DNA from: a virus | Taxonomy: Duplodnaviria; Caudoviricetes | DNA: 64,000 bases | Direction: 5' to 3' (one strand) | Virus record (IMG/VR): IMGVR_UViG_3300034061_006011 | Shown: in pieces, positions 5,348 through 64,000 of the stretch | Layout: each line of letters starts with the position of its first letter | Position numbering within the stretch: the first letter of the stretch is position 1 | Notes under the pieces: model-generated | Told to the model about the DNA's origin: nothing | Seen by the model: the letters and a program-made list of their open reading frames with translations, nothing else | Database searches by the model: none | Position numbers and translations under genes: made by a program

Positions 5348-5355
5348 GGTGAGAA

Positions 5356-47430: not shown

Positions 47431-47997
47431 ATGAATACTTTCAAACAATTTCTAGAATCTAGAAACGATGAACTAAGAAAAGCATTAGAAGACATTACAG
47501 CCAATTTCGCTAAATATGGATCGCCAGTTCCTCCACAACCAATCGATACAGATCCAGATCTCCTAAAATGGGAACCAGAACTATTAGAATTTAACCCAGA
47601 ATTAGTTAAATGGACTCACGAACTACTCCATAAACGCAAAGATCAAAACCAAACAGCAAAAGAATTTAAAAAATGGATCGAAATGAGAACCAGAGCTGAA
47701 ATGAGAACCAAAGCATCAGCACCACCTCCTCAACCAAAACCACCATTGCCACCAATAGAAGACTTTATCAAAGAATATAAGCCAAAAAGACATCCCGAAA
47801 AAGACTACGGAGGATATAACGATGGAATGAAATACACTGTAGTATCTACATCAAAATCTGTACCACATGAATTAAGACAACTAATAGCAAGATCACTAGG
47901 AGAAGAATGGTCATACCGTCAAGAAGTTGATAGAAAACCTTCAGATAACAAAAGAAGACACTATTACCTCGTTTATTGCCCAAGCCTAAGCTTGTAA
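47431..47997 (+). CDS. CTS-tagged hypothetical protein
   Basis: TAAATA then MNTFKQFLE. Confidence 0.7.
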   Translation: MNTFKQFLESRNDELRKALEDITANFAKYGSPVPPQPIDTDPDLLKWEPELLEFNPELVKWTHELLHKRKDQNQTAKEFKKWIEMRTRAEMRTKASAPPPQPKPPLPPIEDFIKEYKPKRHPEKDYGGYNDGMKYTVVSTSKSVPHELRQLIARSLGEEWSYRQEVDRKPSDNKRRHYYLVYCPSLSL

Positions 47998-48050
47998 AAT
48001 AAATTGACATAAATACTAATTTATAATATAAAAATAGAGGCAACTATGTC

Positions 48051-48551
48051 ATGATCGAAATCCCTATCACAAAAATCATGCTAGATTATGCAAACCACAA
48101 AGCATACCAACTCGGAAAATTAAAAAACTCAATAACAAAAGGCGAAGGTAATATCGCCGGATTCCTTGGCGAAATAGCAACAAAAATGTATCTAAACATA
48201 CCATATAACAAAGAAGAAAACTCTATACACTACGATATAATACACAACAACATAAGAATAGATGTTAAAACAAAAAGAACCACAACTACTATAAAACCAT
48301 ACTACGAAACCAGTATCGCCAACCTCAATACACTACAAGATTGTGACGATTATCTCTTTACAAGAGTGTATCAACCTACATATTCAAATATGCCAATATC
48401 AGTATTCCTGCTAGGTATCTACCCAAAAGACCTATACTTCGAAAAAGCTAGATTTCTATCCAAAGGAGATATTGACGGAGATAATAACTATATCGTAAAA
48501 AGCGACTGCTGGAATATGACTATTGATGAATTATACAATATTAACTACTAA
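48051..48551 (+). CDS. PD-(D/E)xK restriction-endonuclease-like nuclease
   Basis: GFLGEIA, YDI..RIDVKTK; TTGACA promoter and GAGG SD upstream. Confidence 0.7.
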   Translation: MIEIPITKIMLDYANHKAYQLGKLKNSITKGEGNIAGFLGEIATKMYLNIPYNKEENSIHYDIIHNNIRIDVKTKRTTTTIKPYYETSIANLNTLQDCDDYLFTRVYQPTYSNMPISVFLLGIYPKDLYFEKARFLSKGDIDGDNNYIVKSDCWNMTIDELYNINY

Positions 48552-48652
48552 TCATCACACAAATCTTCATTAAAAATTCATCCCATTATGCCCCAAACTT
48601 CCATAAATATTATATGGAAGAAATTAATCATATAGTGAATCATATCACAACC

Positions 48653-48775
48653 ATGAACCCAGCACTACCTAATTCTCAACAAGAATTAATTAGCACCCTG
48701 TCATTCATTGCTATCGTACCAGCAACCACCATGTTCATCCTCTACGCAATCTATGAAGAATATTTTCACTGCTAA
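48653..48775 (+). CDS. Small membrane peptide (40 aa)
   Basis: Manual translation MNPALP..FIAIVPATTMFILYAIY. Confidence 0.4.
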   Translation: MNPALPNSQQELISTLSFIAIVPATTMFILYAIYEEYFHC

Positions 48776-48787
48776 TCTAAATATACC

Positions 48788-49270
48788 ATGATCACCTTCA
48801 AACAATTTTTAGAAAATAAAGAAGACTTAGAACTACCACCAGAAATGGGAACCGCTCCAATACCAGATGGATGCGTAAGACTCTATCATCAAACAAATCC
48901 AGAAAATGTTCCATCAATTAAACAAAATGGCATAACTAAATCTTTGTCAACAGGAAAATCGCACCACGAACCATCTGTAATCTGGGCTGCAAGAAAACCA
49001 TTCTATAACATCAAATCAGACCTAGCTACTATCGAATTCTTCATCCCAGAAGAACAATTCTCACCACCAAGCTACGTCTTGGTAGACGTAATACCACCAG
49101 AACAAATTATAGGCATACACGAAAGATGGACCGACCTCGCAAGACACCTAATAAAAGATTACCCAGAACCAAATCAATCAAAAATAGACTTCTGGATGTC
49201 TATCGACGATAATTACAAAAAAGCTACCCAATTTTATGTCAACTATATGAAATCAATAGATAAATTGTAA
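48788..49270 (+). CDS. CTS-tagged ADP-ribosyltransferase-like (Tpt1/KptA-like) protein
   Basis: MITFKQFLE; LYHQT..NV.SIKQNGI; IPPEQI. Confidence 0.65.
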   Translation: MITFKQFLENKEDLELPPEMGTAPIPDGCVRLYHQTNPENVPSIKQNGITKSLSTGKSHHEPSVIWAARKPFYNIKSDLATIEFFIPEEQFSPPSYVLVDVIPPEQIIGIHERWTDLARHLIKDYPEPNQSKIDFWMSIDDNYKKATQFYVNYMKSIDKL

Positions 49271-49289
49271 ATATTATCATAAATACAAC

Positions 49290-50603
49290 ATGACCACTTT
49301 CAAACAATGGCTGTTAACCGAAGCAATAATTGACAAAGAAGAATTTATTAAAGAAATTAATTCTACAGAACATTCTTATTTACACTTACAACTGTCCCCT
49401 AATGGAAAAATATTAATTACAAGCCCTCATATTGAAACCAATATAATAAAAATTGGGAAAAAATATAAGTCAATCGAAGCAACAGGATCATTACAACCAT
49501 TATCTAAAAATTTTGCTAATGTAATTAACACAATTAAAAAAATATATCCTGAAATATTAAACTATGTCGTTTCCGAGACAGGAGTTGCAGGATTTAGAAA
49601 TCCTTCAACAAAACATAGAACAGTACAATATTGGCTTGACCAACAAAGAACAGAACCAAAAGTAAATCTACCAAAATATTTTTATCACGGCACCTCTACA
49701 AACTTATATAATATGTTCATCAAAGAACAAGGATTGGTCCCAAGACAAATATCTGGAAGTTCTGGATCTTATGGTGCATCATCAGTCAGAGCCTTATCAA
49801 GAGGAATGTTTAATTATCTTACAATTCATCCTGATTATGCTACAAGAGAAGCAGCTACACAAGCAGCAAAAAATCATGGCGGTCTTCCACTCATATTAAA
49901 AATAAATTCATATGCAATAGATCCAACAAGACTTTTTCCCGATGAAGACGCAAGAGCAGAAACTTGGGAAGAATCCATGCACAAGATAGGAACAGTTGCC
50001 TATAAAGGCATTATCCAAAACTCAAGCATCATGCCATATGAAATTAGCAAAGATATCAATAGATTAAAATGGTTGCCTTATGAAGAAACACCAACAATGA
50101 ATCATCCCACATACGAAAAATTAATTACAACAAAAGAACATAGAAACAAAGATTCCGTATTCTTTGCACTTTATGATAAAGAAATAATTGATAGAAAAGG
50201 TAGCTTACTCAAACCAATAACCAGCGAAGAATTTAACGAAATAATAAAGAATGCAAAATGGGCAACTAATGCATGGTTAATTTGTGAATCAATAAACGAA
50301 GGTATATTGGAAAAGACAAGAAATTCTGTTATCAGCAGAAGTAATTTCGATAAAGAAGCACAAAAAATTGTACTTGATTTGTATAAGCATGATATTTTTG
50401 ATGAATATCTGCAAATGAAAAGCGAATACATTAGAATATATGATTACGCAATACAAGTAATAATAAAATATGCTAAATACCTTGGCAAAAATTCATGGAA
50501 AGAAATAGATCAAAAATTAAGAACTGTTTACTCAAGAAACAATAGAGATCAAAATGACCACTTATATTCCACTGAAGCTAAAGAAATATTAGGAATTAAA
50601 TAG
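49290..50603 (+). CDS. CTS-tagged ADP-ribosyltransferase-like (Tpt1/KptA-like) protein
   Basis: MTTFKQWLLTE; FYHGTS..IKEQGLVP; YLT..A...A; PLILKI; AYKGII. Confidence 0.72.
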   Translation: MTTFKQWLLTEAIIDKEEFIKEINSTEHSYLHLQLSPNGKILITSPHIETNIIKIGKKYKSIEATGSLQPLSKNFANVINTIKKIYPEILNYVVSETGVAGFRNPSTKHRTVQYWLDQQRTEPKVNLPKYFYHGTSTNLYNMFIKEQGLVPRQISGSSGSYGASSVRALSRGMFNYLTIHPDYATREAATQAAKNHGGLPLILKINSYAIDPTRLFPDEDARAETWEESMHKIGTVAYKGIIQNSSIMPYEISKDINRLKWLPYEETPTMNHPTYEKLITTKEHRNKDSVFFALYDKEIIDRKGSLLKPITSEEFNEIIKNAKWATNAWLICESINEGILEKTRNSVISRSNFDKEAQKIVLDLYKHDIFDEYLQMKSEYIRIYDYAIQVIIKYAKYLGKNSWKEIDQKLRTVYSRNNRDQNDHLYSTEAKEILGIK

Positions 50604-50715
50604 AAAGATTACCCGCAACTCCCGAAGAAGCAAGTATGTGGAAACTCAAAACTCTTAACCACCCATTCCATTTCAAATTCATTTCAGAAAATCCACAAGT
50701 AATCATAAATAATAC

Positions 50716-51867
50716 ATGACTAATTTTAAACAATGGCTACTTACAGAAGAAATTGACCGTAATGGCAAAACGGCAATAGTTTATCATAGAACCGACGAAA
50801 TTGAAAATGCACTTTCAATACTCCAATATGGATCTAAATCCGATTTTGATAAAGACCATCCTATGTTATCCGATTTTGATAAAGACAATCAACCGGGGCA
50901 GATGTTCTTCGTCTTTGATCTTGAAAGCACTATGGGAAAGGCAGAAACTTACGGAAATGCTATAATAAAATTCAAAGTCACTGATCTTGATAAATATCTT
51001 GTATTCCATACAAATATGGCTAAAAGAATTCATGGAGAGAATTACAAATTAAGTGATCAACTTAGAGAATTCAAAATTTCACAAAAATTCACACAAAATT
51101 ATCTTGATGATATAGACGAAAAACTAGTCACAAATCAATATAACCACATCACTGACGTTTATTCTTTTTTAATTGAAAACGAATGGATAAAAAGTAAAAT
51201 AAAAGGCGTTATTTATTGGGGATATGATGATGGATATTGCTTGCTTAAATTCCGTCCAGTAAATGACGGAACAATTACTATGATCGGATATGCAACCGAC
51301 CCACACAAAAATTATGAAAAAGATGGGATAATAAAAAGCAAAAATAGAATGAAAGATTTAGAAAAATCTCAAAATTGGACAACATCAACAGATATAGCCA
51401 AATTAAAATCTATTGATAAAACCCCATACGGACAAAGAGAAAAATATATTAAAATAAAAGAAAAAAATCCAACTGTCTTGGAAATAATCAAAAAACTAAA
51501 ACTAGAGAAAAATATTGAAAAAGATGAATTATTAAAAATAATGAATTCTGTTAAAAATAAAAACGCATTTGCAAAAATAATTATACAAAATAAAAAAGAA
51601 TTAACAGTTGATGATATTTCATTGTTAATGAAATATTCAACAGACTCATGGGAAATTTGTTCATTTATACTTAAGAATAGACCAGAATTGTCTGATTTTA
51701 TTTCTAGAGCTATGTTTCCTAAAACCTACAGACCAATGGACACTCAAACCAGCAAGGTATGGTCTGATTATACATCAGATCCAGACAGAAGACCAATAGA
51801 CACTAAAACCGGCGAAAGACCAGAATTGTCTGATTTTATTTCTAGAGCTATGCGTTCCCGTAAATAA
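50716..51867 (+). CDS. CTS-tagged PARP/ART-like protein, paralog of 54638..55720, with internal duplications
   Basis: MTNFKQWLLTE; VYHRT; YGNAIIKFKVTDLDKYLVFH. Confidence 0.68.
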   Translation: MTNFKQWLLTEEIDRNGKTAIVYHRTDEIENALSILQYGSKSDFDKDHPMLSDFDKDNQPGQMFFVFDLESTMGKAETYGNAIIKFKVTDLDKYLVFHTNMAKRIHGENYKLSDQLREFKISQKFTQNYLDDIDEKLVTNQYNHITDVYSFLIENEWIKSKIKGVIYWGYDDGYCLLKFRPVNDGTITMIGYATDPHKNYEKDGIIKSKNRMKDLEKSQNWTTSTDIAKLKSIDKTPYGQREKYIKIKEKNPTVLEIIKKLKLEKNIEKDELLKIMNSVKNKNAFAKIIIQNKKELTVDDISLLMKYSTDSWEICSFILKNRPELSDFISRAMFPKTYRPMDTQTSKVWSDYTSDPDRRPIDTKTGERPELSDFISRAMRSRK

Positions 51868-51910
51868 AATTTATTTAACAATTAATTAAATATACACCAA
51901 TAAATACAAC

Positions 51911-52561
51911 ATGATCAACTTTTATCAATTCCTTGAATTTGCTAGAGAAATCATCCCAATAGGTACTGTTACTGACCCAAATGTCAGAAAATCGCTGGCA
52001 GGAAGAAGAATTAATTCCGCTGATGCGAAAAAATATTTGGATCAAGGTTTCGTTTATGTCTATAGATTTGAAGGATTCGCACCACGTCTCAGGAAGTATT
52101 CAAGAGGAGTTTGGTATTTTATAGGAGATGAAAATGATACTAAACTTGATCTGGGCAAATGCTTATTAGCATGGAATAAAGTACATGCACTTCACCTATT
52201 AGGATTTCCCAACAATTATATATTGTTTTATATTAATCCTGCAAATTTTTTACGACTTGCTGCTGACCAAAATTTAAACAATAGATATATAAATCAAGTA
52301 ATAAAATCACACTTTAATGAAAATGGACCTACCAAAGATTTCAATTCTTATGATAAATTAGATTTTCCCATGACTGGTATCGCAAAAAGTCAGGGATATG
52401 ATACTATCATGTTAGTTGCAGAAGGTGATTCCAAATCAGCAGAATTAATCGATCTTAGAACAGAAGTAACTCCTAAATCATTAGAAGATTATTTAAAAGA
52501 AATAGATGTAGATGAAGTTATGAAAGATTTAAAGAAAAAAAAGGGGAAAAAATCTACATGA
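51911..52561 (+). CDS. CTS-tagged protein, possibly ART-like
   Basis: MINFYQFLE; VYRFEG, GVWYF, AKSQGYDTI. Confidence 0.55.
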   Translation: MINFYQFLEFAREIIPIGTVTDPNVRKSLAGRRINSADAKKYLDQGFVYVYRFEGFAPRLRKYSRGVWYFIGDENDTKLDLGKCLLAWNKVHALHLLGFPNNYILFYINPANFLRLAADQNLNNRYINQVIKSHFNENGPTKDFNSYDKLDFPMTGIAKSQGYDTIMLVAEGDSKSAELIDLRTEVTPKSLEDYLKEIDVDEVMKDLKKKKGKKST

Positions 52562-52617
52562 TCACTTTCAAATAATCACCGTAACAACTCCAGTTAATTC
52601 TAATAAAATTAATATAA

Positions 52618-53301
52618 TTATTCTGAATCTGAGGAATAAGTGCCTATACCATAGTACTCTTTAATCTTATCAATCGCATCATTGTAAAGAATTGTTGCAT
52701 AAGAAGGACGAATATTCAATTCTGCCGCAATATCTTTATTCATTACATCCTCAGACCTGCGAGTCAAAATAATCTTCTGCCTTGGACTCAAATTGGGAAC
52801 CCTTAACAAATCCTCTAATCCCATCTTTTCAGACGATGGATCATCAGCAAATGAACTAGGCTCATGAATAGTACCAACTGTGTTAAAACTCACATTTCCT
52901 TTCTCACTCTTCCAATTATTACGCCTTATAATGTCCACAACAGATGCTCTAATCATGTTTGTAATCAAACCACCAATTAAATTGTAATTCAATTTTCTAT
53001 TTCTTATTTTTTTTTCAACCGTATTGTGAACCCTCAGCAAAGTCCTGTTGATAATGTCCTCTTCATCAACAATGTTTCTTATAACCATTCTACGCTGATA
53101 AGGCAAAAGACTATTCCTAAAACAATTTCTTATATTATTGTCCAATCTATCATAAAACTTTTCCTTCTTACCCAAATTATCAGAATACCATAAAAATAAA
53201 TTCTCCAAATTCCTCTTACACTTAAAAATTATCTCGGCTGCTTCTGGATCTACAGATTCATGAAAATCTCTATTAATAACATATTCAAAAAATGTTTTCA
53301 T
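52618..53301 (-). CDS. CTS-tagged sigma70/ECF-like sigma factor
   Basis: Region 2-like EEDIINRTLLRV..LITNMIRASVVDIIRR; region 4 LSPRQKII..NKDIAAELNI..A..LYNDAIDKIK. Confidence 0.78.
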   Translation of the reverse strand: MKTFFEYVINRDFHESVDPEAAEIIFKCKRNLENLFLWYSDNLGKKEKFYDRLDNNIRNCFRNSLLPYQRRMVIRNIVDEEDIINRTLLRVHNTVEKKIRNRKLNYNLIGGLITNMIRASVVDIIRRNNWKSEKGNVSFNTVGTIHEPSSFADDPSSEKMGLEDLLRVPNLSPRQKIILTRRSEDVMNKDIAAELNIRPSYATILYNDAIDKIKEYYGIGTYSSDSE

Positions 53302-53381
53302 AATAAACTATATATTCCACTAAACAAAAAAATCACACCACATCTCTATAAATTAAATCCACAAATAAGCATAAATACTAC

Positions 53382-53762
53382 ATGATCACTTTCAAACAAT
53401 TCCTAGAATCCTACAGAATGGAAGACCAAACCTTCTCCGATAACAACGGCACCTACTCCGTACCACAAATAGTCAACTACGCAACAGAAAACAAAACAAT
53501 AAAAGAAATGCCATTAGAACCCCTACTACATAACCTAGAACCATCCCCACACGAAGAAGGTGATGAACTACCCGGTCATCCAGAATTTATCAAAAGAACT
53601 GAACTAACTGACCTCAAATACCCAATCATTATCGTCAAATACCCAGACGGTCTCTTTATCGCTGACGGTGTCCATAGACTAGCAAAAGCTCACTCCCTAA
53701 ACCAACAAACTATCAAAGCTTATGTCCTAGACCAAAATGAATTAGAACAATTCAAAATGTAA
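53382..53762 (+). CDS. CTS-tagged ParB/Srx-like domain protein
   Basis: MITFKQFLE; DLKYPII..IADGVHRLAKA. Confidence 0.8.
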   Translation: MITFKQFLESYRMEDQTFSDNNGTYSVPQIVNYATENKTIKEMPLEPLLHNLEPSPHEEGDELPGHPEFIKRTELTDLKYPIIIVKYPDGLFIADGVHRLAKAHSLNQQTIKAYVLDQNELEQFKM

Positions 53763-53768
53763 CATTCT

Positions 53769-54563
53769 TCAAGACTCAATCCAATCCTGTCCATTATGAA
53801 CTAAAATTTTAGTCACAGGTAAAGAACTTTCTCCTGTGTACTTCAAAGCCATAGGATTCTTTCCATAATTATTCTGGAAAAACCAAGATTCCAGTTTTTT
53901 ATGCAATTCTGGATTCCGATCCTGATGTCCATAATAAAAAGGAGCTATATTAGATGCTGCTCCTGCACTGTAATAAGGGTTATCATTCAACAAAGGATCA
54001 CGAACACTTCCTATTCTACCGGGAAATTTACCATACAAACTTCTGGCTACAGGATTCTTCTTGATAGTCGAAAATGGAATTGGCTCGGCATCAATACCAG
54101 TCAACTTTTCTCCAACTTCATCCTTTGACAAATATTCTTTTGTCTTGTCTGTTAAATTAACATCTCCCAACTTGTTCAGCTTTCCAACTCTTTTAGAAGC
54201 ATAAGTAAGAATGTCCTTCGCATGATTCTCAATGTCCAAATCCCATTCACCAAAATCAATATTTGGAACATCTATTACAACAACTATAGGATTACCCTCT
54301 AAAGAACCCTTCAAACCATACAATTCTCTGTTCATACGAGCCAAAGCATGAGTTTTTGCGCTTTCATCCGATGTCCAAAGAAATAAACCACCTCCCTGAC
54401 CATGACCGTATCCCGAAGACCTAGCACCATCCCTCTTAAATGAATTCAATACCTCATCGTTCTTTCCAGAACTAGTTCCATGATAAAACCTGAAAGGACC
54501 ATTAATAACAATATCATGTGAATAACCTTCATCATGTCGAAGCCACTCTTTGAAATTATCCAT
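53769..54563 (-). CDS. CTS-tagged PARP/ART-like protein
   Basis: MDNFKEWL; FYHGTS; GQGGGLFLWTS..A..HA; PIVVVI. Confidence 0.65.
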   Translation of the reverse strand: MDNFKEWLRHDEGYSHDIVINGPFRFYHGTSSGKNDEVLNSFKRDGARSSGYGHGQGGGLFLWTSDESAKTHALARMNRELYGLKGSLEGNPIVVVIDVPNIDFGEWDLDIENHAKDILTYASKRVGKLNKLGDVNLTDKTKEYLSKDEVGEKLTGIDAEPIPFSTIKKNPVARSLYGKFPGRIGSVRDPLLNDNPYYSAGAASNIAPFYYGHQDRNPELHKKLESWFFQNNYGKNPMALKYTGESSLPVTKILVHNGQDWIES

Positions 54564-54590
54564 AATGTTTATATATAAAAAATCCAGAAA

Positions 54591-54632
54591 AATATCAACC
54601 CTCTACACAAATTAAATCAACATACATAAATA
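54591..54632 (+). repeat. 42-bp intergenic late-promoter repeat, copy 1
   Basis: AATATCAACCCTCTACACAAATTAAATCAACATACATAAATA, identical at 55719..55760. Confidence 0.92.
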
Positions 54633-54637
54633 TAACC

Positions 54638-55720
54638 ATGAACTTTAAACAATGGCTCATCAACGAAGAAATTTATCCCAATAACACCGCTACGGTTTAT
54701 CATAGGACTGAACACGCTAGCAATATTGAAAGAATTCTACAATCTGGATACAAAACCGGTGGTGGTCAAATGTATGGTAATGGTCTTTACACTACCATCT
54801 CACTAGAAAGCCAATTTAAAAGTTATATGAGCATATATGGTAATTATGTTATCAAGTTTCATGTCACCGATCTTGATAAATATCTTGTATTCCACCCCAA
54901 TATGGCTAAAAAAATTCATGGTCAAAATTACAAAATCAGTGATCAATTGAAAAATTTTAATTTAGCAGGAAGCTTTACAGAAGATAAACTTAGACAATAC
55001 GATGAAGCACAAGAAAAAACCGGAACTGTTAATGGTAATAATGCAGTTAAATTTTGTAGAGAAAATATTGGGATACTGCATACAATAAAAGGCATTATTT
55101 ATTATGGAACAAATGATGGCTATTGTTTAGTAAAATATAAACCAGTGAACGATAATACAATAAAAATGCTTGGTTACGCAGAAGCACAAGTTGAAGATAT
55201 CAATAAAATGAACGAACTGTACGCAAATAAAGGATGGAATACATCAACAGATAAAGCTAACATCAAAGATATACAAGATTTAGAACCAGATCAAAGAGAA
55301 AAATACGCAACAATTACTCCAAATAATTTGAAATCTGTATCAGAAATTGTAACCCTTATAAAGGATGAAAAATCTAATTTTGAAGAAATATTCGAATACA
55401 TAAAGAGAAATAAATTAATAGATCAAAAATACAAAAATACTATTGTAAGACTTATATTAAAATATAAAAAAGAAATATCCGTGGAACAATTGCTAGAACT
55501 AGTAAAATACAAAAAAGAAATCTCCATAGAAGAATTAATTGAACTAATAAATTACAAAAAAGAAATCTCCATTAAACAATTACTAGAACTAATGAAATAT
55601 ACAAACATGTCCACATCAGAAAGAGAAAAATTTATTGCAACTTACTTACCAGAAAAAGTAAATTCAATTAAACAATATGTTAACGATCCATCAAACTTTA
55701 CTTCAACACATGATGATTAA
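54638..55720 (+). CDS. CTS-tagged PARP/ART-like protein with C-terminal 15-aa tandem repeats
   Basis: MNFKQWLINE; VYHRT; YGNGLYTT; KYKKEIS.EQLLEL-like x3. Confidence 0.75.
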   Translation: MNFKQWLINEEIYPNNTATVYHRTEHASNIERILQSGYKTGGGQMYGNGLYTTISLESQFKSYMSIYGNYVIKFHVTDLDKYLVFHPNMAKKIHGQNYKISDQLKNFNLAGSFTEDKLRQYDEAQEKTGTVNGNNAVKFCRENIGILHTIKGIIYYGTNDGYCLVKYKPVNDNTIKMLGYAEAQVEDINKMNELYANKGWNTSTDKANIKDIQDLEPDQREKYATITPNNLKSVSEIVTLIKDEKSNFEEIFEYIKRNKLIDQKYKNTIVRLILKYKKEISVEQLLELVKYKKEISIEELIELINYKKEISIKQLLELMKYTNMSTSEREKFIATYLPEKVNSIKQYVNDPSNFTSTHDD

Positions 55721-55760
55721 TATCAACCCTCTACACAAATTAAATCAACATACATAAATA
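55719..55760 (+). repeat. Late-promoter repeat, copy 2
   Basis: Identical to 54591..54632. Confidence 0.92.
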
Positions 55761-55766
55761 CACATC

Positions 55767-56048
55767 ATGAAACTTAAAGATAAAGCTACCATCAAAACAA
55801 ATTTTCCAGAAGCTGACTTTTGGATCGTTCGCAGAGGATCAGAATCAGACGTTGGTAAACCTACCAAAAAATTTAGCGAATATCACATAGGAATTAAAGT
55901 TACATCTGATGACCTATTACCAGATTATCTCTACTACGCAATGACATATCTCTACAACCAAGGATACTATAAACCATTAGCCACAGGAATGTCAAGCTTG
56001 GTAAACATACAAGTTAAAGATGTTAAAAATATTAAAATGGGCGAATAA
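55767..56048 (+). CDS. Small protein resembling a type I R-M specificity (TRD) half-domain
   Basis: LLPDYLYYAM..L...G..S.VNI...DVKNI pattern. Confidence 0.5.
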   Translation: MKLKDKATIKTNFPEADFWIVRRGSESDVGKPTKKFSEYHIGIKVTSDDLLPDYLYYAMTYLYNQGYYKPLATGMSSLVNIQVKDVKNIKMGE

Positions 56049-56061
56049 TAAAACCACACTA

Positions 56062-56111
56062 CCTCTACACAAATTAAATCAACATACATAAATATAACCA
56101 TGAACTTTAAA
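56062..56111 (+). repeat. Late-promoter repeat, copy 3, extending through ATGAACTTTAAA
   Basis: Identical to 54600..54649, including the first four CTS codons. Confidence 0.9.
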
Positions 56112-56693
56112 GAATTTATTTATAATGAAACATCAACAGCTAGCCTAGACCTCGTTGGCTATAACTGCCGTCAAATAGAACCAGACACAGATCCACACTT
56201 CGGTCAAGTACATGTCTCTGGTCCCAGCGAAGAAGACATGAGTGCTGAAGTATTCGTCAAAAGATATATCGAAAATATCATAGAAGAAAAGGACTACTAC
56301 GAATTCATAAAAGAATATGGAGACGATCCATATGAGAAAAATCAATCACTCACAACAGAACGCCAACAATGGATGGTAAAAGCTGCCAATTTTCTTAACA
56401 AAAAAGGATACAGAATGCTATTCTGCGGCGATAAACCAGAAAAAATCTATGGAGAAAATTGCTACGCAGTCTATATCGATAAAACAAAAATTATTAATAT
56501 CACACGTCGTGACTATTACCCAATGACAGACGAAATAGACGAAATCACAGAAGAAACTATCATCACTTGGAAAATACCATACAACCCAATCCTCGTAAAT
56601 ATCAAAACATTACCAACAAAATTACCAAAACCAATTCCACTCATCAGACCAAGAAGACGATCAGATCGAAATGGAGATCACGAATTCCTATAA
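56100..56693 (+). CDS. CTS-tagged hypothetical protein
   Basis: MNFKEFIYNE behind the repeat. Confidence 0.7.
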   Translation: MNFKEFIYNETSTASLDLVGYNCRQIEPDTDPHFGQVHVSGPSEEDMSAEVFVKRYIENIIEEKDYYEFIKEYGDDPYEKNQSLTTERQQWMVKAANFLNKKGYRMLFCGDKPEKIYGENCYAVYIDKTKIINITRRDYYPMTDEIDEITEETIITWKIPYNPILVNIKTLPTKLPKPIPLIRPRRRSDRNGDHEFL

Positions 56694-56721
56694 CCCAATA
56701 CCAGAAATATTACACACCACT

Positions 56722-56755
56722 TCTACACAAATTAAATCAACATACATAAATACAC
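56722..56755 (+). repeat. Late-promoter repeat, copy 4, with no downstream ATG (empty)
   Basis: TCTACACAAATTAAATCAACATACATAAATACAC followed by CTGAG. Confidence 0.88.
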
Positions 56756-56773
56756 CTGAGCAAATCATAACAC

Positions 56774-57682
56774 CTAATAAATCCGTTCTCCTCTGACGGA
56801 CTCACTCGTCCTCTGCTTCCATTGGTCCCTTAAAACATCTCTTCGCATCATAGCTGCCTTGGAAAACGGCTCAACAGCCAAATGTGCAGCCGGAAGGTCA
56901 AATGCCTGCTGCGGCGTTTCTCCCACCAATAAGTCCTTCACAGTCATAGTTGTTACTGATTTCCCACCCTTATCAAATGTATTTACAAAAATAGTTGTAT
57001 TCATAGTAGCAGGCTGATACAGGAGAGCTTCATCATCACTAGTTGACCTGACACGCTGATTCTTGGCACAAATAGCCTTAAGGCAATTTATCAATTTCTC
57101 CTTGTCATACGAATACATGTCGAAATTGTTGGCACCCCTCACAAGTATCATACCAGCATCCTTCATCGCCTCTACTTCAAGCTGCTCTTCTCCATGACCC
57201 ATAGCTATCTTCTGCAAAATTGATGAAGCCGATCCCAAAGCCTCATCCAACCCTTTAGCCATTATTTGCTCAATATAATTTTCACATTCTTTATCATTAT
57301 TATACACATCAGAGGATATCATGTCGCTAATTACCGAATACATCAAACCAAAATTTTCATGATTGATGTATGTCTTATCGGAAGGAGGAAAAAAGAAACC
57401 GGAAGAATGAACATGACCACGCCTGACATCTCTCTCTTCTCTCTCAAGCTTTTCCTTGTTAACACAAGGATTGTTCCTAAAATTAGTATAAAAATCAAAT
57501 AAAGCTTTTTTGTATTTCGTGACATAATATTGCGATATTAAATCTGTATGTCCTCTGGATCTGTCAGATCTTATGGCATTCTGCAACTTACCATTTGGAT
57601 AATATATCCATTCGCCCTTGATGCAGGACTCTCCTTCACTCTCATTTTCTCTCATCAAAACCCAATCCATAAAACGAATCAT
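56774..57682 (-). CDS. CTS-tagged hypothetical protein
   Basis: MIRFMDWVLMRENE; TAAATA upstream. Confidence 0.68.
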   Translation of the reverse strand: MIRFMDWVLMRENESEGESCIKGEWIYYPNGKLQNAIRSDRSRGHTDLISQYYVTKYKKALFDFYTNFRNNPCVNKEKLEREERDVRRGHVHSSGFFFPPSDKTYINHENFGLMYSVISDMISSDVYNNDKECENYIEQIMAKGLDEALGSASSILQKIAMGHGEEQLEVEAMKDAGMILVRGANNFDMYSYDKEKLINCLKAICAKNQRVRSTSDDEALLYQPATMNTTIFVNTFDKGGKSVTTMTVKDLLVGETPQQAFDLPAAHLAVEPFSKAAMMRRDVLRDQWKQRTSESVRGERIY

Positions 57683-57731
57683 ATAATCTCCAATATTTAA
57701 TTACCCATGTATATTTATTCCAAATAATTAA

Positions 57732-57941
57732 AAACCTCACCCAATAGAACAACTAAAAGCCAAAAGAATTAAAATAACCATCAACCCCGGAGATTGGGTC
57801 TGCCTCACAAGAAATTATGCAAAAGAACACGGAGAAGGAAGCCTGAATAACGTATTCAAAATAATATCCAAAACAGTACCAGCTAAACACCTATTCACTA
57901 ACGGTGACATGCTACAAGAATTCGGTTACGACCCTTCTTAA
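57732..57941 (+). pseudogene. Start-less fragment of an ART-like phage domain
   Basis: Manual translation INPGDWVCLTRNYAKEHG..ISKTVPAKHLFTNGDMLQEFGYDP; in-frame TAA at 57729 and no upstream ATG. Confidence 0.55.
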
Positions 57942-57948
57942 TACACAT

Positions 57949-58545
57949 TTATACCGCACGAATATTTTGTAAAAATTTCTTCTTTTCCAAAGGACTCGAC
58001 TCCATTGTCAAATTCTCTGGAATAGATGGATAACCCTTCGGAACATATTCCCTTTCATATATATCTCTCCTCATCCATTGATTTATTTTTACCGAAACAT
58101 ATGAAGGAAATAAACCCTTGATGGCAAAAATATCATACGCATCTCTGCGACCTTCAGGATTCGTTATTATTCCAGTAACAGGATTGGCAGTTTTTGTTTT
58201 TGACGGACTCCATATCAGATAATCAGGATTATTATTTTTGATAAACTCACCAATTGCATAAAAAACAGCACCAATCACCTTAATACCAACTCCACGCCTC
58301 TCATCCTTAGAATTGTTACTTCCCCTTTTAAACTCAACTTCATAACTATTCGATTTCAACTCCTCAAACCAGACCAAATAACACCACTTGGGACTACAAT
58401 CATCACCCTCAACATCGAAGTAAAACAAATCATTGCGACTCCACTCCGAATGCTTCGGCTTACCTCCATCAGTTCCCACAATAGTCATCTCGCTTAACCA
58501 CAAATAATCATCTGTTCGGTCCAAATATTCAAAAAATGTTTTCAT
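57949..58545 (-). CDS. CTS-tagged hypothetical protein
   Basis: Start reassigned to 58545 (MKTFFEYL); N-terminal DNA identical to that of the sigma gene. Confidence 0.68.
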   Translation of the reverse strand: MKTFFEYLDRTDDYLWLSEMTIVGTDGGKPKHSEWSRNDLFYFDVEGDDCSPKWCYLVWFEELKSNSYEVEFKRGSNNSKDERRGVGIKVIGAVFYAIGEFIKNNNPDYLIWSPSKTKTANPVTGIITNPEGRRDAYDIFAIKGLFPSYVSVKINQWMRRDIYEREYVPKGYPSIPENLTMESSPLEKKKFLQNIRAV

Positions 58546-58549
58546 AATA

Positions 58550-59713
58550 TCAACTGCCCCTTCTATCCATAATAACTTCACCCCTGCAACCATCTATAAT
58601 TGAATGGTAAGAGGCTGCAATTTCATTAAATCTACTGTCCAAACCATCTAGCAAACTATCAAAATTTTCCGGTTCCCTACCTGCAAATAATTTTTGCAAC
58701 TTTACTTTGTAATTAGGATCAACTATCGGCAACCTTCCTCCTTGAGTTAACCAAAATACAAATATCTCCATTTGTAACTCCCCAGAATTTAAAGCCTGTT
58801 GTAAATCCATTTTCGATTTTATAAATTGACCCGATCTGGCTCCAGATATTATCTTAAACGCTTCCTTTATACTCCAAATACTAGGAAACAAAATTGTTAG
58901 AAAATCTATAGTTATATTCCCTATTCTTTTTTGTATTTCTTCATCAGTATACAAAGCTTCTTTATTACCATCTTTCAACACATCAATCCAACCTTGATAA
59001 AACTGTGGATACATCGGACTAACCAAAAAGTCTTTCAAAAGTTCCTTAACTAAATTTTCAGCTCTAACACAATCCTCCTGAATTTTATTCATGTATGTGT
59101 TGCCATAATCTGCTGTACGAGCAAGTGACCCTCTATCAAAAATACCATGTGCAAATGTGTGAAGAATCAACCAAGGAGTCAAAGGATCAGCAGCAGTACT
59201 CGTCTTCATGTAAACAATATCATTCTCACTTATGTTCATTCCGTCACGACCATAAAAATAATTTTTTAATTGATTGTAGTTGTCTTTAGTTAACTCTTTA
59301 CTTATGGTAAATCCTGACTTAATATCATCTTTAGGATAACCAAAATAGAAATGTATGTTCACAATACCAAGCTTCTCTAACTTCTTTTCAAGACCAGACA
59401 TTATCAATTTAAAATTTCTAGGATTCTCTATAATTTTCTTGTCACCACCTTTAAAATTGTGATCCCAACCAGAACTACCATATCGACTACCAACATCATC
59501 AGAATCAATATCCTTGTCTGGAAAATGCTTTTTATACTCATCACCATAATTTGAACCAAATTGAGAAGACCAACCATAATCATTAGACGGCGGCTGATTT
59601 TGCAAACCCTGTGAAAGATTATGCTGAACCGGATAACCTCCAACTGACCCTAAAACTTCATCAATTGTAAATTTATTGTCATTAATCAAAAACCACTCTT
59701 TAAATCTTTTCAT
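58550..59713 (-). CDS. CTS-tagged protein, zincin-like HxxxH; paralog of 46533..47348
   Basis: MKRFKEWF; LTPWLILHTFAH; ends CRGEVIMD. Confidence 0.72.
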   Translation of the reverse strand: MKRFKEWFLINDNKFTIDEVLGSVGGYPVQHNLSQGLQNQPPSNDYGWSSQFGSNYGDEYKKHFPDKDIDSDDVGSRYGSSGWDHNFKGGDKKIIENPRNFKLIMSGLEKKLEKLGIVNIHFYFGYPKDDIKSGFTISKELTKDNYNQLKNYFYGRDGMNISENDIVYMKTSTAADPLTPWLILHTFAHGIFDRGSLARTADYGNTYMNKIQEDCVRAENLVKELLKDFLVSPMYPQFYQGWIDVLKDGNKEALYTDEEIQKRIGNITIDFLTILFPSIWSIKEAFKIISGARSGQFIKSKMDLQQALNSGELQMEIFVFWLTQGGRLPIVDPNYKVKLQKLFAGREPENFDSLLDGLDSRFNEIAASYHSIIDGCRGEVIMDRRGS

Positions 59714-59975: not shown

Positions 59976-60156
59976 AAATAAATCAAGATGAACAACAAAA
60001 GGGAGCCATGATGGCGGGGGGATACCCCCCTACCCCACTCTCTTTTGGGGAATGTCAAGTGCAATTATGTTATGGCAACTTTGTAACATAATTAAAAAAC
60101 CCCTATAAAACAAGTGCGGCGCAATTGTGTTATCACGCCGCCTGCCTATTCTGTTA

Positions 60157-60327
60157 TCACCTTACCCACTTCATAGTTATGTTAGCCTGAACCTTTGGCT
60201 TATCCCCCTCCCATTCAGTATTGATATTCACTTCTGTTATCTGCCTTGTCGGCTTGCGGTCATGGTGTTGAACGTGTTGGCAACCTACCGACAACACCAC
60301 AACCAATAACATAATTAACCTTACCAT
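60157..60327 (-). CDS. Small lipoprotein-like protein
   Basis: Start 60327 (AAGGA SD); hydrophobic leader ending in lipobox-like LSVGC. Confidence 0.6.
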   Translation of the reverse strand: MVRLIMLLVVVLSVGCQHVQHHDRKPTRQITEVNINTEWEGDKPKVQANITMKWVR

Positions 60328-60470
60328 GGTCATCATCCTTGAATGCCGATTGATCCCCACACTACTATTATCGGCATTCAACCAACCAGACTTGAACCAA
60401 CCTAAAGATTCTTCCTAACCACATTTTAGTATCCTAAGTTTGTCCGCATTGTCTCAATTGAAATAACAAT

Positions 60471-60503
60471 AAAAAAACCCCCTTCTCCGGGTGGAGAAGG
60501 GGG
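60471..60503 (-). terminator. Rho-independent terminator
   Basis: CCCCCTTCTCC / GGAGAAGGGGG stem plus A7 (U-run on minus strand). Confidence 0.9.
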
Positions 60504-60524
60504 CTGTTGATTATTGTTAGCCTA

Positions 60525-61190
60525 TCATTCAGATAACAGAATCATTTCTAATTCCCCCCCACGGATTCCCATTGAAGGGAATCCCTTGGCTGAATAAATT
60601 CTTTCGATTGCGTCTTCGGACGTTAGCCCGAAGACGTTTTGCAATTGTTGGAACAGGCACTTCAAATGGCGATCCAGTGCCAACTTTGTTATCACAATAA
60701 CAAAGTTTTCAATGGTGCCGTTAACACGGCACGCCGTCCCAGTGGGACGGTTGATTTCAAAATTAACCGTCCCAAGACGGTTCACATCCCACTTATAACG
60801 CCCACTGGCGGATTGATCCGCCGGTGTTGGTAGTGGGTGTTGACAATTACAATAAGTATCCTGATCCGCATTGAAATAGTCCGCCCAATCAATGGGCGTT
60901 CCAATGCACGCCCAAAGATGCCCAAACGAATGGGCGATTTTACGGGACACCCGCAATTGTGCGGGTGTCATTTTTGAAGTCTCAAAACTGAATTCATCGG
61001 GATACCGAAGTGGCTCGCCACTCCAGTGGCGTGAACAGTCTCGCTTGCCCCGTAGGGCAAGCGATGCGATTTCAGCGGCATTGGGTGCCGCAGCGTTCTT
61101 CCTGATCCAGTGGTTGAGATACGCAACACGACCGGTTGCGGTTGCGGTTGCGGTTGCGGTTGCGGTGGCGGTGGCGGTTGAAATGGTCAT
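60525..61190 (-). CDS. Early hypothetical protein with (TA)n N-terminus
   Basis: Start reassigned to 61190 (GAGAG SD after structured leader). Confidence 0.65.
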   Translation of the reverse strand: MTISTATATATATATATATGRVAYLNHWIRKNAAAPNAAEIASLALRGKRDCSRHWSGEPLRYPDEFSFETSKMTPAQLRVSRKIAHSFGHLWACIGTPIDWADYFNADQDTYCNCQHPLPTPADQSASGRYKWDVNRLGTVNFEINRPTGTACRVNGTIENFVIVITKLALDRHLKCLFQQLQNVFGLTSEDAIERIYSAKGFPSMGIRGGELEMILLSE

Positions 61191-61269
61191 GTTCGATACT
61201 CTCATGCCCGTTTCAGGTACGGGTGGACCTTGGCTAAGGTGAACCACAACATGCGGTTCACCTACGACT

Positions 61270-61297
61270 ATCTTAACATCATCCCCAACTAGGTCAA
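61270..61297 (-). promoter_or_regulatory. Sigma70-type early promoter
   Basis: TTGACC-16-TAAGAT with TG extension. Confidence 0.75.
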
Positions 61298-61496
61298 GAG
61301 AAAATCCACCCAAGAGAAAAGATTCCTCCCATCCACATTTTAGTATCCTAGTGTTGTCTCAATTGTCCAGCAATAGGATTCCTCCCATCCACATTTTAGT
61401 ATCCTAGTGTTGTCCACATTGTCCAGCAATAGGATTCCTCCCATCCACATTTTAGTATCCTAGTGTTGTCTCAATTGTATCAATTCAGATAACAAT

Positions 61497-61529
61497 AAAA
61501 AAACCCCCTTGACTTGTCTGTCAAGGGGG
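61497..61529 (-). terminator. Rho-independent terminator
   Basis: CCCCCTTGAC / GTCAAGGGGG stem plus A-run; same at 61950. Confidence 0.9.
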
Positions 61530-61552
61530 TGGTTGATTAAGTTAGCCGATTG

Positions 61553-61759
61553 TTATTTAATTTTGTCGAGCCACATATCGATGATTCCAGAAACCAGTTT
61601 CCTTTCCTTTGGTTTCATTCTTAGAAACATTTTTAGATGTTCAACGATTTTCTCGAATCGTTCCAGCTCATTTTTGATTCTTTTAAGTTGTTTGTCTACC
61701 CTCTTTGGGCGAGAAACCTTTCCATCAACAATGCGGCTTGATTCGTTTTCAGTTCTCAT
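61553..61759 (-). CDS. Small early hypothetical protein
   Basis: Within a promoter/leader/terminator cassette. Confidence 0.65.
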   Translation of the reverse strand: MRTENESSRIVDGKVSRPKRVDKQLKRIKNELERFEKIVEHLKMFLRMKPKERKLVSGIIDMWLDKIK

Positions 61760-61833
61760 GGTATTCGATCCATACGGTTTTCAGGGGAACCGGGAACCTA
61801 GAAGCGGCACACTATGCGCCGCCTCATGCATTC

Positions 61834-61861
61834 ATTCTACCATCATCCCCAACTAGGTCAA
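61834..61861 (-). promoter_or_regulatory. Sigma70-type early promoter
   Basis: TTGACC-16-TAGAAT with TG extension. Confidence 0.8.
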
Positions 61862-61949
61862 GGGAAAAGAAAAGATTCCTCCCATACACATTTTAGTATC
61901 CTAGTGTTGTCTCAATTGTCCAGCACAATATCAAAATTGAAATAACAAT

Positions 61950-61982
61950 AAAAAAACCCCCTTGACTTGTCTGTCAAGGGGG
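61950..61982 (-). terminator. Rho-independent terminator
   Basis: Identical to 61497..61529. Confidence 0.9.
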
Positions 61983-62006
61983 CTGTAGTTTTGTTATCTG
62001 ATATTG

Positions 62007-62273
62007 TTATTTTGTGAACGCCTCCAGTATTGCCTTCATGGCAACGTCTCTTATTTCACTCTTAGGCAAACGCATGATTGCCCGCATACAAGAGATTTTA
62101 TTCTTGTAGCTTTTGAGTAGGTCATCCAATGGCGTTTTCTCCCTTGCGTGGGGTATTTCCGGCAGATTAAACCGCTGTGGCTTATCGCACTTAATGTATT
62201 CCTTGTATTCCTTTTCCCGCTTGTCGGCGGTTGGAGAAACGGTTGCGGCAACGGCGTTACGCTCAATTTTCAT
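62007..62273 (-). CDS. Small early hypothetical protein
   Basis: Within a cassette; leader nearly identical to that of 61759. Confidence 0.65.
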   Translation of the reverse strand: MKIERNAVAATVSPTADKREKEYKEYIKCDKPQRFNLPEIPHAREKTPLDDLLKSYKNKISCMRAIMRLPKSEIRDVAMKAILEAFTK

Positions 62274-62347
62274 AGCAGTCGATCCAACCGGTTTTCAGGG
62301 GAACCGGGAACCTAGAAACGGCACACTATGCGCCGCCTCATGAAGTC

Positions 62348-62375
62348 ATTCTAACAACGTCCCCAACTAGGTCAA
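62348..62375 (-). promoter_or_regulatory. Sigma70-type early promoter
   Basis: TTGACC-16-TAGAAT with TG extension. Confidence 0.8.
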
Positions 62376-62583
62376 GAGAAAATCCACCCAAGAGAAAAGA
62401 TTCCTCCCATCCACATTTTAGTATCCTAAAGTTGTCCGTATTGTATCTTAAGAGGAATTCCTCCCATCCACATTTTAGTATCCTAAAGTTGTCCGTATTG
62501 TATCGTAATAGGAATTCCTTCCATCCACATTTTAGTATCCTAAAGTTGTCTTAATTATCTAGAACGATATCAAAAAAGGGTGT

Positions 62584-62700
62584 AATAGTGTTAGCCGATA
62601 ACGAAATAGCGGAGATAACGAAATGGCGGGAATAGTGTTAGCCGATAACGAAATAGCGAAGATAACGAAATGAAGGTAATAGTGTTAGCAGATAACGAAA
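62584..62700. repeat. GATAACG / AATAGTGTTAGC array 1
   Basis: 5 GATAACG and 3 AATAGTGTTAGC copies. Confidence 0.88.
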
Positions 62701-62716
62701 TTAAAGATATGAAAAC

Positions 62717-62749
62717 AAAAAAACCCCGCAAGCCTTTCGACTTGCGGGG
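62717..62749 (-). terminator. Rho-independent terminator
   Basis: CCCCGCAAG / CTTGCGGGG stem plus A-run; same at 63785. Confidence 0.9.
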
Positions 62750-62770
62750 CAGATTGACCGGCAGGGGTTG

Positions 62771-63283
62771 TCATGTTGTCGTGTGTGATGTAATCTTGAT
62801 CACATTATTGGAAACACCTTGATAAACCGGAGACATCTTACCCGCATGAGTGAACTCAATTCCGTAATTGGCACCGACACGGAATTCGGTTTCCGTTCCG
62901 GGTTCATAAGCCACGAAACCGATATTCGTTGCCTCATGAACAAAGTTCACGATGCGAGTTGGTTTCCCATATCCCCAGCGTACTGGTGAAACCCCTACGC
63001 ATATCACTTCAATATTGTAATTACCCGGCTCAATCGCTTGAGTGATTGGCGTTGGCAATTTAATAGCTGCAATTGGTGCAAGTGGTGCAATTGGTGCAAT
63101 TGGTGCCACTGGTGGCACTTGCGCCACTGGTGCCACTGGTGGCACTTGCGCCACTTGCGCCAACGCTGCCCTAAGCGTTGCCAATTGTTCGGGGTTGAAA
63201 CCCCGAACAAGATCAAGCATCGACTGGCTTGCATCGATTGCCACTGGTGCGGAAACGGACTTGGCGTTCTTGCGGGGTGCCAT
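62771..63283 (-). CDS. Early hypothetical protein with Ala/Pro/Val repeat linker
   Basis: Start reassigned to 63283 (GGAG SD; MAPRKNAK). Confidence 0.65.
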   Translation of the reverse strand: MAPRKNAKSVSAPVAIDASQSMLDLVRGFNPEQLATLRAALAQVAQVPPVAPVAQVPPVAPIAPIAPLAPIAAIKLPTPITQAIEPGNYNIEVICVGVSPVRWGYGKPTRIVNFVHEATNIGFVAYEPGTETEFRVGANYGIEFTHAGKMSPVYQGVSNNVIKITSHTTT

Positions 63284-63362
63284 GGTCATAAACTCCATGC
63301 CAGTTTCAGGATACTGGCGGAACCGGTTAAGGTGAACCACAACATGCGGTTCACCTACAAGC

Positions 63363-63391
63363 ATCATAGGGAAACCGTTTCACTAGGTCAA
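63363..63391 (-). promoter_or_regulatory. Sigma70-type early promoter
   Basis: TTGACC-17-TATGAT. Confidence 0.78.
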
Positions 63392-63604
63392 GCGAATTCC
63401 CAAGAAAGTTTCCTTACAAATTCTTAAGATCCGCGGACCCCCCCCCCTCCCATCCACATTTTAGTATCCTAAAGTTGTCTCAATTGTCCAGTCTGGTAAC
63501 AAAAAAGGAATTCCTCCCATCCACATTTTAGTATCCTAAAGTTGTCTCAATTGTTTCTAAAAAAAACAAAATTAAATTATAATATTTAATTTCATAATTA
63601 AAAT

Positions 63605-63770
63605 AGTTATCAGATAACGAAAGTGGCAATAATGTTAGCCGATAACGGAATAGGGGAGATAACGGAAACGGTAATAGTGTTAGCGGATAACGTAAGTGGG
63701 AATAGTGTTAGCGGATAACGGAAGTGGGAATAGTGTTAGCGAATAACGGAATAGGGGAGATAACGAAATT
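63605..63770. repeat. GATAACG / AATAGTGTTAGC array 2
   Basis: 6 exact GATAACG plus 1 variant; 3 AATAGTGTTAGC plus 1 variant. Confidence 0.88.
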
Positions 63771-63784
63771 ACCGATATGAAAAC

Positions 63785-63817
63785 AAAAAAACCCCGCAAG
63801 CCTTTCGACTTGCGGGG
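63785..63817 (-). terminator. Rho-independent terminator
   Basis: Identical to 62717..62749. Confidence 0.9.
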
Positions 63818-63841
63818 CAGGATTGCCGATATGTTATTCGA

Positions 63842-64000
63842 TTATGCACCAAGCCAGATGATCTTGGTGTTCTTATTGGCAAGATGACGGGTGAGCAGGA
63901 AGACGAGATCAGTGTCTTCCTTTTTTGAAATCATCTTGATTACGTCACCGTTTCGATCAACGGTCAATTGAACCGAAGTTCCTTCAATCTGGTTCATTCC
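63842..64000 (-). CDS. 3' part of a small hypothetical protein (may start beyond the window)
   Basis: Open frame ...MNQIEGTSVQ..IIWLGA* ending just before the terminator. Confidence 0.5.
   Translation of the reverse strand, partial: GMNQIEGTSVQLTVDRNGDVIKMISKKEDTDLVFLLTRHLANKNTKIIWLGA

Follow-up and report, generated by a model that had tools for sequence, protein, structure and literature searches.

Among the weapons of a phage against the defences of its host, injected head proteins come first, and to our knowledge their renewal is known only from the small internal protein (IP) loci of T-even phages. In T4 it is the gp21-type protease that removes the capsid-targeting sequence (CTS). Here we describe a 31-bp repeated element, the core, in a 64,000-nt stretch of DNA from a virus of the Caudoviricetes (IMG/VR record IMGVR_UViG_3300034061_006011; the whole of this stretch is called the window), where it forms the joint between genes of an array whose products mostly begin with a CTS-like tag. 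The T4 CTS reads MKTYQEFIAE (PMC8442874), with residues 4 and 7 serving targeting and residues 8 and 10 processing (PMC9026906), and in the T-even IP loci variable CTS-tagged injected proteins are encoded between conserved regulatory motifs (Repoila et al., 1994; Comeau et al., 2007; both as summarised in PMC2839356). In T4-type phages, the promoter-early stem-loop (PeSL) elements act as mobile regulatory cassettes (Arbiol et al., 2010, PMC2839356; Comeau et al., 2014, PMC4122927).

The locus follows the logic of the T-even IP loci and of the PeSL elements and is new in its linker, which is of late type, lacks a hairpin, directly adjoins the ATG and may extend into the tag codons. As in the T-even IP loci, the tag resembles MKTYQEFIAE and a gp21-type protease is encoded, unrelated gene bodies stand behind a common 5' module, and close relatives vary in gene content, with exchange at regulatory joints. 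Unlike those loci, which are two in number, small and of one to three genes, the array described here comprises about 15 genes over 13 kb; where the T-even elements are described as built on early promoters with AT-rich stem-loops, here a late-type box abuts the ATG with no leader, Shine–Dalgarno (SD) sequence or stem-loop; and the bearer is a huge uncultured lake phage, the products of which are predicted to be packaged in the head. With the PeSL elements the core shares its nature as a short conserved regulatory element flanking single non-essential genes in a hyperplastic region, the indels and replacements between near-identical phages that it bounds, and the lack of an evident dedicated recombinase. 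Unlike them, it has neither a sigma70-like early promoter nor a terminating stem-loop (terminator hairpin), on which two grounds identity with PeSL was rejected, and it is of late type and may include the first codons of the product.

Four copies of a 31-bp core at gene boundaries

The original prediction had described four 31-bp cores, with exact identity extending over 42 bp between copies 1 and 2 and over 50 bp between copies 1 and 3, and both an exact search and a comparison of the flanks agree with it (Table 1). All four copies are exact and lie on the plus strand; the 42 bp include the left flank AATATCAACCC, the 50 bp reach through ATGAACTTTAAA, and copies 2 and 4 are identical over 34 bp. 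Copy 1 is moreover identical over 59 bp to the joint between a 360-aa and a 197-aa gene in two of the lake contigs described below (L006 and L012). When up to three mismatches were allowed, no further match was found in the window and none in 100 shuffled sequences. A scan of viral_contigs for the exact core gave no match, as did blastn of positions 53300-57700 against 50,697 phage records, and in the window as in our metagenome scan the core is restricted to this locus. Neither dyad symmetry nor a fold was detected in it (z-scores about 0).

Each of the first three copies precedes one gene, as predicted, namely gene 1 (360 aa), gene 2 (93 aa) and gene 3 (197 aa), whose start codons follow the core at a distance of 5, 6 and 5 nt respectively. 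Copy 4 has no open reading frame (ORF) and no ATG behind it, and the stop codon of a convergent 302-aa gene follows after 21 nt. A degenerate copy had also been proposed near position 53335, and it is seen there as a diverged fifth copy of the joint, which is closer to the variant core of other lineages (TCTCTATAAATT...) than to the window's own core. The flanks of the copies form a mosaic: the left flank is of one type (A) in copies 1 and 2 and of another (B) in copies 3 and 4 and the fifth copy, the right flank is of type X in copies 1 and 3 and of type Y in copies 2 and 4, and all four left/right combinations are present in the window, as expected if exchange occurs inside the core. Since the three cassette gene products are unrelated to one another, and since a paralogue of gene 1 (positions 50716-51867, 37% identity) has a different upstream region, the identity of the joints is not a residue of the duplication of whole cassettes.

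Natural alleles in lake contigs

Relatives of the locus were collected by looking up exact proteins and by scanning metagenomes for the core, which gave about 25 different contigs from lakes, with 96-100% identity to the window in the parts they share. Cassette exchange at the repeats had been proposed, with an identical gene order in all relatives as the observation that would speak against it; at least eight gene orders were found, and among them are natural alleles in which cassettes are missing or replaced, with the crossover inside the core. In the following, gene orders are given in window orientation, genes are named by the length of their product in amino acids, c denotes a core and (-) the minus strand. 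The window type, represented by more than 10 contigs, reads 126, 264(-), c1, 360, c2, 93, c3, 197, c4 (orphan), 302(-), 203 (remnant), 214(-), 387(-). L006 reads 117, 360 (behind a different joint of its own), core, 197, core, 203, 214(-), 387(-), and L012 reads 216, 129, 360, core, 197, core, 226, 203, 387(-). The order in L022, L024 and L027 is 360, c2, 92, c3, 197, 84-94(-), core, 226, 302(-), that in L025 is 360, core, 203-like, and that in L036 and L038 is 264(-), core', 360, core', 464, 205, 214(-), 387(-). L020 has the 93-aa gene and lacks the 264-aa gene, and L021 resembles L020, except that its core at copy 2 is a variant one and that 46 nt are deleted from the start of the 197-aa gene. 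Lastly, the tagged array of L014 is otherwise unrelated and includes a block of 981 bp (93, core, 197) that is 99.7% identical to the window.

Across these contigs 16 distinct combinations of left side, core and right side were counted, and six or more distinct recombinant joints switch inside the core. Behind the end of the 360-aa gene, the core leads to one of four different genes (93, 197, 203-like and 464), and the end of the 197-aa gene is found in three states, followed by an orphan core in the window type, by the 226-aa gene in L012 and by the 203-aa gene in L006. The joint of L006 and L012, where the 93-aa gene is absent, combines the left flank of copy 2 with the right flank of copy 3; the 93-aa cassette is therefore present or absent by a switch inside the core. 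In L036 the 464-aa and 360-aa genes have nothing in common but the putative promoter and the first ~13-28 residues (103 nt, 92%), the bodies being unrelated. It had been suggested that promoter and tag are acquired together, which agrees with this gene and with copies 1 and 3 and does not extend to gene 2, which is untagged. The same 3-base variant core is present at both copies in L036 and L038, which indicates that the core copies evolve in concert; variant and standard cores are mixed in L021. In the distant contig L001 (35% amino acid identity), two paralogues that are 30% identical have in common an exact stretch of 46 nt that comprises the putative promoter and the first codons.

The place behind copy 4 had been called an empty slot; by the alleles, it is not a vacant acceptor. 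A tagged gene of 226 aa begins with its ATG right behind the copy-4 joint and its CACC in L012, L022 and L024, and in L006 the gene at this place is a tagged one of 203 aa. Relative to L022 the window lacks 667 bp (L022 bases 4971-5637 in window orientation), starting at the A of the ATG. Since the core and the CACC are kept and the sequence resumes 14 nt before the end of the 226-aa gene, the slot is, on this alignment, a deletion scar of that gene, where it is the direction of the event that we infer.

The proposal that recombination takes place at the repeats accounts for several joints, which switch inside the core, and does not cover several rearrangements with other breakpoints. Those off the core break at the start codon, in tag codons or at illegitimate joins. 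The segment 53759-54637, with the 264-aa gene and copy 1, is missing in L006, L012, L020 and L021, which have a different joint of 28 nt upstream of the 360-aa gene, and its left breakpoint is without homology. The module 56757-57741, with the 302-aa gene, is absent from L006 and L012. Further upstream, a 19-24-bp duplication (52558-52575 and 53376-53400) brackets the gene for the 227-aa sigma-like protein; its left part is an orphan tag start, MITFK followed by a stop codon, which overlaps the stop codon of the 216-aa gene. L012 has no sigma-like gene, and its 216-aa and 129-aa genes are coupled through an ATGA overlap. The two minus-strand insertions, those with the 264-aa and the sigma-like gene, each carry a putative forward promoter that would re-drive the downstream gene. 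The 46-nt deletion of L021 (2431-2470, corresponding to window positions 56100-56145) takes the ATG and the tag codons of the 197-aa gene and leaves the core intact, and is a second kind of predicted orphan promoter.

The block in L014 (4798-5778) looks like a recent transfer between divergent phages, judging from its match to the window. Its left joint is the ATG of the 93-aa gene. The other tagged genes of this contig are without nucleotide similarity to the window, and its 93-aa gene stands without a core, in an ATGA overlap with the gene before it.

The joint as a putative promoter linker, and other explanations

Every one of the four cores ends on its 3' side in CATAAATA, a T4-type late-promoter box. 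T4 late promoters have TATAAATA at -13 to -6, the first T being poorly conserved, and those of Aeh1 have CTAAATA (PMC1524935); the late box of S-PM2 is NATAAATA (PMC2984593). Across the window, ATAAATA lies 3-7 nt upstream of 10 ORF starts (0.15 expected), and a late box is found 2-7 nt from the ATG in 12 of 16 array ORFs as against 5 of 54 ORFs elsewhere. SD sequences show the reverse distribution (3/16 in the array, 23/54 elsewhere), and none is present at the core joints. The core is thus probably a late promoter, with one copy for each downstream gene, and since a spacer of 5 nt places +1 on the A of the ATG, the late mRNAs of core-driven genes are probably leaderless or nearly so. The array has the 8-bp box of T4-family late promoters, variable in its first base, as in the CTAAATAA box that stands with an SD leader upstream of the portal gene, and differs from them in that its box lies 4-6 nt from the ATG, implying leaderless mRNAs. 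The joint would accordingly be a minimal expression unit, and it points to leaderless late mRNAs in a T4-like phage. Nine other array genes have a late box with quite different upstream sequence. No terminator-like site was found within 53200-57000, and the joints fold no better than shuffled sequence, apart from a weak pairing over a long range at copy 2. That the core might be a sigma70 promoter (TCTACA, 17 nt, CATAAA) was rejected because a sigma70 scan calls no site at any core.

The best explanation of the locus, and in our view a probable one, is that the core serves as a linker, carrying a promoter and in places the tag, for recombinational shuffling of cassettes in an array of head cargo genes. 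General homologous recombination between copies would delete, insert or exchange whole genes, because the copies are identical and each fits precisely between two neighbouring genes, after the stop of the first and before the start of the second, and the exchange could take place inside one genome or between co-infecting relatives. The downstream gene would retain a working promoter and often the tag too, the identity of copies 1 and 3 continuing into ATGAACTTTAAA, which would be the first codons of the tag, and the joint copies would be homogenised with one another. The 13-kb array of a giant uncultured phage would then be the renewal process caught in nature, with its crossovers in one 31-bp joint, and this joint would mark likely arrival points of new effectors. 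More tentatively, and with the doubts outweighing the reasons, one may picture late box, start codon and tag as a maintained 'plug', behind which any ORF would be late-expressed, leaderless and head-loaded; giant T4-like phages would then possess an integrase-free, integron-like platform on which injected effectors are acquired and traded, with gene conversion keeping the joints identical and recombinogenic.

Several points weigh against the explanation by a recombinational linker. Identities of 31-59 bp are short for homologous recombination, for which T4 is credited with working on patches of <50 bp (Singer, 1982, as cited in PMC2839356), and tblastn with T4 gp45, gp46, gp47 and gp49 found no such recombination genes in the window. 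Four events lie off the core, namely the left joint of the 264-aa segment, the deletion of the 226-aa gene, the left joint of L014 and the 46-nt deletion of L021, and for each event the choice between insertion and deletion is our reading of the alleles. The expected cleavage motif (L/I)xE is irregular after the tag: it occurs as IxE or LxE at residues 8-11 in some proteins (MNFKQWLINE, MT.FKQWLLTE), others having FLE or no clear site. A homologue of T4 gp55, the late sigma factor that works with gp33 and gp45, was not found by sequence search of the window and of the nearest phage record, LR756511.1, a search that distant homologues could escape, and the box could be part of a translation leader rather than a promoter.

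This last idea can be put more fully: the A/C-rich, G-free stretch before the ATG would be a translation-initiation leader of a polycistronic mRNA, with the shuffling still at the joint. Both the missing gp55 homologue and the lack of any terminator or hairpin between the genes fit it. The box, however, conforms to the T4-family late consensus at a distance that fixes +1 on or beside the A of the ATG (PMC1524935), other genes of the phage use an ordinary SD sequence, and before the portal gene such a box is found together with an SD leader; we consider a mere leader unlikely. It is a little more doubtful still that the identity of the cores reflects only what the promoter requires, the differences in gene content having arisen by illegitimate recombination unrelated to the repeats. 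Some events do break outside the core, and its upstream half partly recurs in other array promoters (CACAA[AG]T.A), but the nine array genes with a late box and quite different upstream sequence, the confinement of the core to this locus and the 3-base variant, which is evidently functional in another lineage, all speak against such a requirement, as do the recombinant joints, at least six of them distinct, that switch inside the core.

A dedicated site-specific system of the integron kind, in which the cores would be attC-like sites of a recombinase, would explain the precise cassette boundaries with one gene per cassette. No integrase or recombinase family is represented in any ORF from 41.7 to 61.3 kb, the core has neither dyad symmetry nor fold, and the switch points vary within and beside it, which makes this account very improbable; identity with integrons was rejected since no IntI-type integrase is present in these ORFs and no attC-like palindromes were found. 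Assemblies also typically go wrong at repeats, and L014, L020, L021 and L025, four of the variant orders, are singletons, so that the variant orders could be thought to be assembly chimeras. We find this scarcely credible: with 31-59 bp, the repeats fall short of the final k of 141 used for the 'k141' contigs and of usual read lengths, the variants carry 1-3% single-nucleotide polymorphisms over their whole length, and variant junctions recur in independent samples and assemblers, the L006-type joint in JGI and ENA assemblies, the L022 type in three to four JGI samples and the L036 type in ENA, JGI and Logan data. The linker for cassette shuffling thus remains the explanation that we prefer.

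The tagged array and its genes

Judged by its genes, the window is part of a huge T4-like lake phage, with T4-type head genes and a gp21-type protease in the same genome as the tagged array (Table 1). Its closest match among the records is LR756511.1, an uncultured phage of 595 kb whose major capsid protein is 76% identical; homologues of gene 1 and of the 302-aa gene are missing there, as is a syntenic array, and this phage is too distant for a comparison of cassettes. The intein splicing domain of the portal gene (gp20) occupies residues 120-336, N-terminal to the Portal_T4 domain.

Table 1. Positions of the repeat copies, cassette genes and other features in the window.
Feature	Position	Strand	Remarks
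Gp23	22550-24007
gp21-type prohead protease	24918-25562	-	PF03420, E 7.7e-26
Portal_T4 protein (gp20)	27795-30308	-	with intein
TerL	38606-40372
Hyperplastic array of about 15 tagged genes	46533-59713		T4-CTS-like N-termini; holds the core locus
Orphan tag start	52558-52575	+	MITFK then stop; repeats start of 126-aa gene
227-aa sigma-like tagged gene	52618-53301	-	absent in L012
Diverged fifth copy of joint	53335-53378	+	upstream of 126-aa gene
126-aa ParB-like tagged gene	53382-53762	+	behind fifth copy
264-aa tagged gene	53769-54563	-
Copy 1 of joint	54591-54649	+	left flank AATATCAACCC, core 54602-54632, spacer TAACC, ATGAACTTTAAA (MNFK)
Gene 1, 360 aa, tagged	54638-55720	+	MNFKQWLINEE; ADP-ribosyltransferase (ART)-like N-terminal domain and helical C-terminal repeat
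Copy 2 of core	55730-55760	+	gene 1 stop codon within left flank; spacer CACATC
Gene 2, 93 aa, untagged	55767-56048	+	like the target-recognition domain (TRD) of HsdS (DUF6943-like), stand-alone
Copy 3 of core	56064-56094	+	spacer TAACC, then ATGAACTTTAAA
Gene 3, 197 aa, tagged	56100-56693	+	MNFKEFIYNE
Copy 4 of core with spacer CACC	56722-56756	+	core 56722-56752; putative orphan promoter without ATG
Last 14 nt of 226-aa gene	56757-56770	+	remnant, includes stop codon
302-aa tagged gene	56774-57682	-	MIRFMDWVLMRE; convergent; own leader and SD
3' third of 203-aa tagged gene	57743-57943	+	remnant; intact in L006, L012, L025, L036

The tag has the form M-x-x-F-x-E/Q-F/W/Y-L at the N-terminus of array products. 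In order to count it, the motif [FY]x[EQD][FWY][LIVFMW] was sought within the first 10 residues of each of the 74 ORFs of the window, and it was found in 18 (0.23 expected), 13 of which lie at 46.5-59.7 kb. An aromatic residue at positions 4 and 7 and an aliphatic one at position 8, as in the CTS, are present in the products of genes 1 and 3 and not in that of gene 2. The tagged products include an ART-like family, a sigma-like protein, a ParB-like protein, a NUDIX hydrolase and a flavin mononucleotide (FMN) reductase, and from their N-termini those of the array are probably loaded into the phage head. The tag would thus be a simple means to list candidate injected effectors of huge phages, which here are the ART-like proteins, the sigma-like factor, the NUDIX hydrolase and the ParB-like protein. 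CTS-like N-termini also occur outside the array, at 41168-41593 on the minus strand and at 20889-21752, 5356-6213 and 4844-5347 on the plus strand; these four proteins are a NUDIX hydrolase, an FMN-reductase-like protein and two without a functional lead.

The N-terminal domain of the gene 1 product (residues 10-197) was modelled with an ART-like fold at a predicted local distance difference test (pLDDT) score of 84. Its fold matches have a VIA Z of 8.0 for MbcT (139 residues, root-mean-square deviation 4.0), 6-7 for cholix/ExoA and ParT and 5.6-6 for PARPs, and Foldseek matches are weak, with E-values of 0.03 or poorer. Three residues, H22, Y51 and E57, are at least 90% conserved and may correspond to the expected ART triad of the type His ... 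Tyr ... Glu. Like T4 Alt, a capsid-packaged ADP-ribosyltransferase (PMC9026906), gene 1 pairs a CTS-like N-terminus with an ART-like fold; unlike Alt, to which it has no sequence similarity, it has a moderate fold match (Z up to 8) that is nearest to enzymes of the H-Y-E/MbcT/ParT type. The protein has no Pfam match, and tblastn against the 50,697 phage records found none, whilst 78 homologues with a near-invariant N-terminus were collected. These homologues are about 200 to 630 aa long, with most of the length variation in the C-terminal repeat region; in gene 1 itself, part of this region is encoded by three tandem 45-bp units at 55455-55605, as helical repeats of 15 residues (KYKKEIS.EQLLEL.).

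The model of the gene 2 product (pLDDT 93.5) has the fold of the TRD of S subunits of type I restriction-modification systems, with Foldseek matches to 1ydx (TMq 0.72, probability 1.00) and 7eew (TMq 0.70), followed by 8w0p and 7vs4; its match to Pfam DUF6943 is below threshold. The 183 homologues, at 55-65% identity, come from Proteobacteria and phages, among them Salmonella, Pseudomonas and Pantoea. Since it is an untagged HsdS-TRD-like protein that is widespread in bacteria, gene 2 is probably not head cargo; that it acts in or against restriction is only a guess from the modelled fold. The family (~95 aa; P0103-P0198) is tightly conserved, unusually so for an accessory gene of a phage, and is found on enterobacterial, pseudomonad and other chromosomes and on plasmids; among its members is one with the annotation restriction endonuclease S subunit.

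No lead from Pfam, PHROG or Atlas was obtained for gene 3, and the 302-aa gene has no relatives in viral_contigs. In most contigs of the window type the latter is called as 298 aa, so that its start or its length varies between close variants. Scans of the window with Rfam and for tRNAs gave no hit. Towards the end of the window, at 60000-64000, G+C rises to about 45% and long ORFs are few, and blastn self-matches reveal many internal repeats of 60-200 bp at 61.3-63.7 kb.

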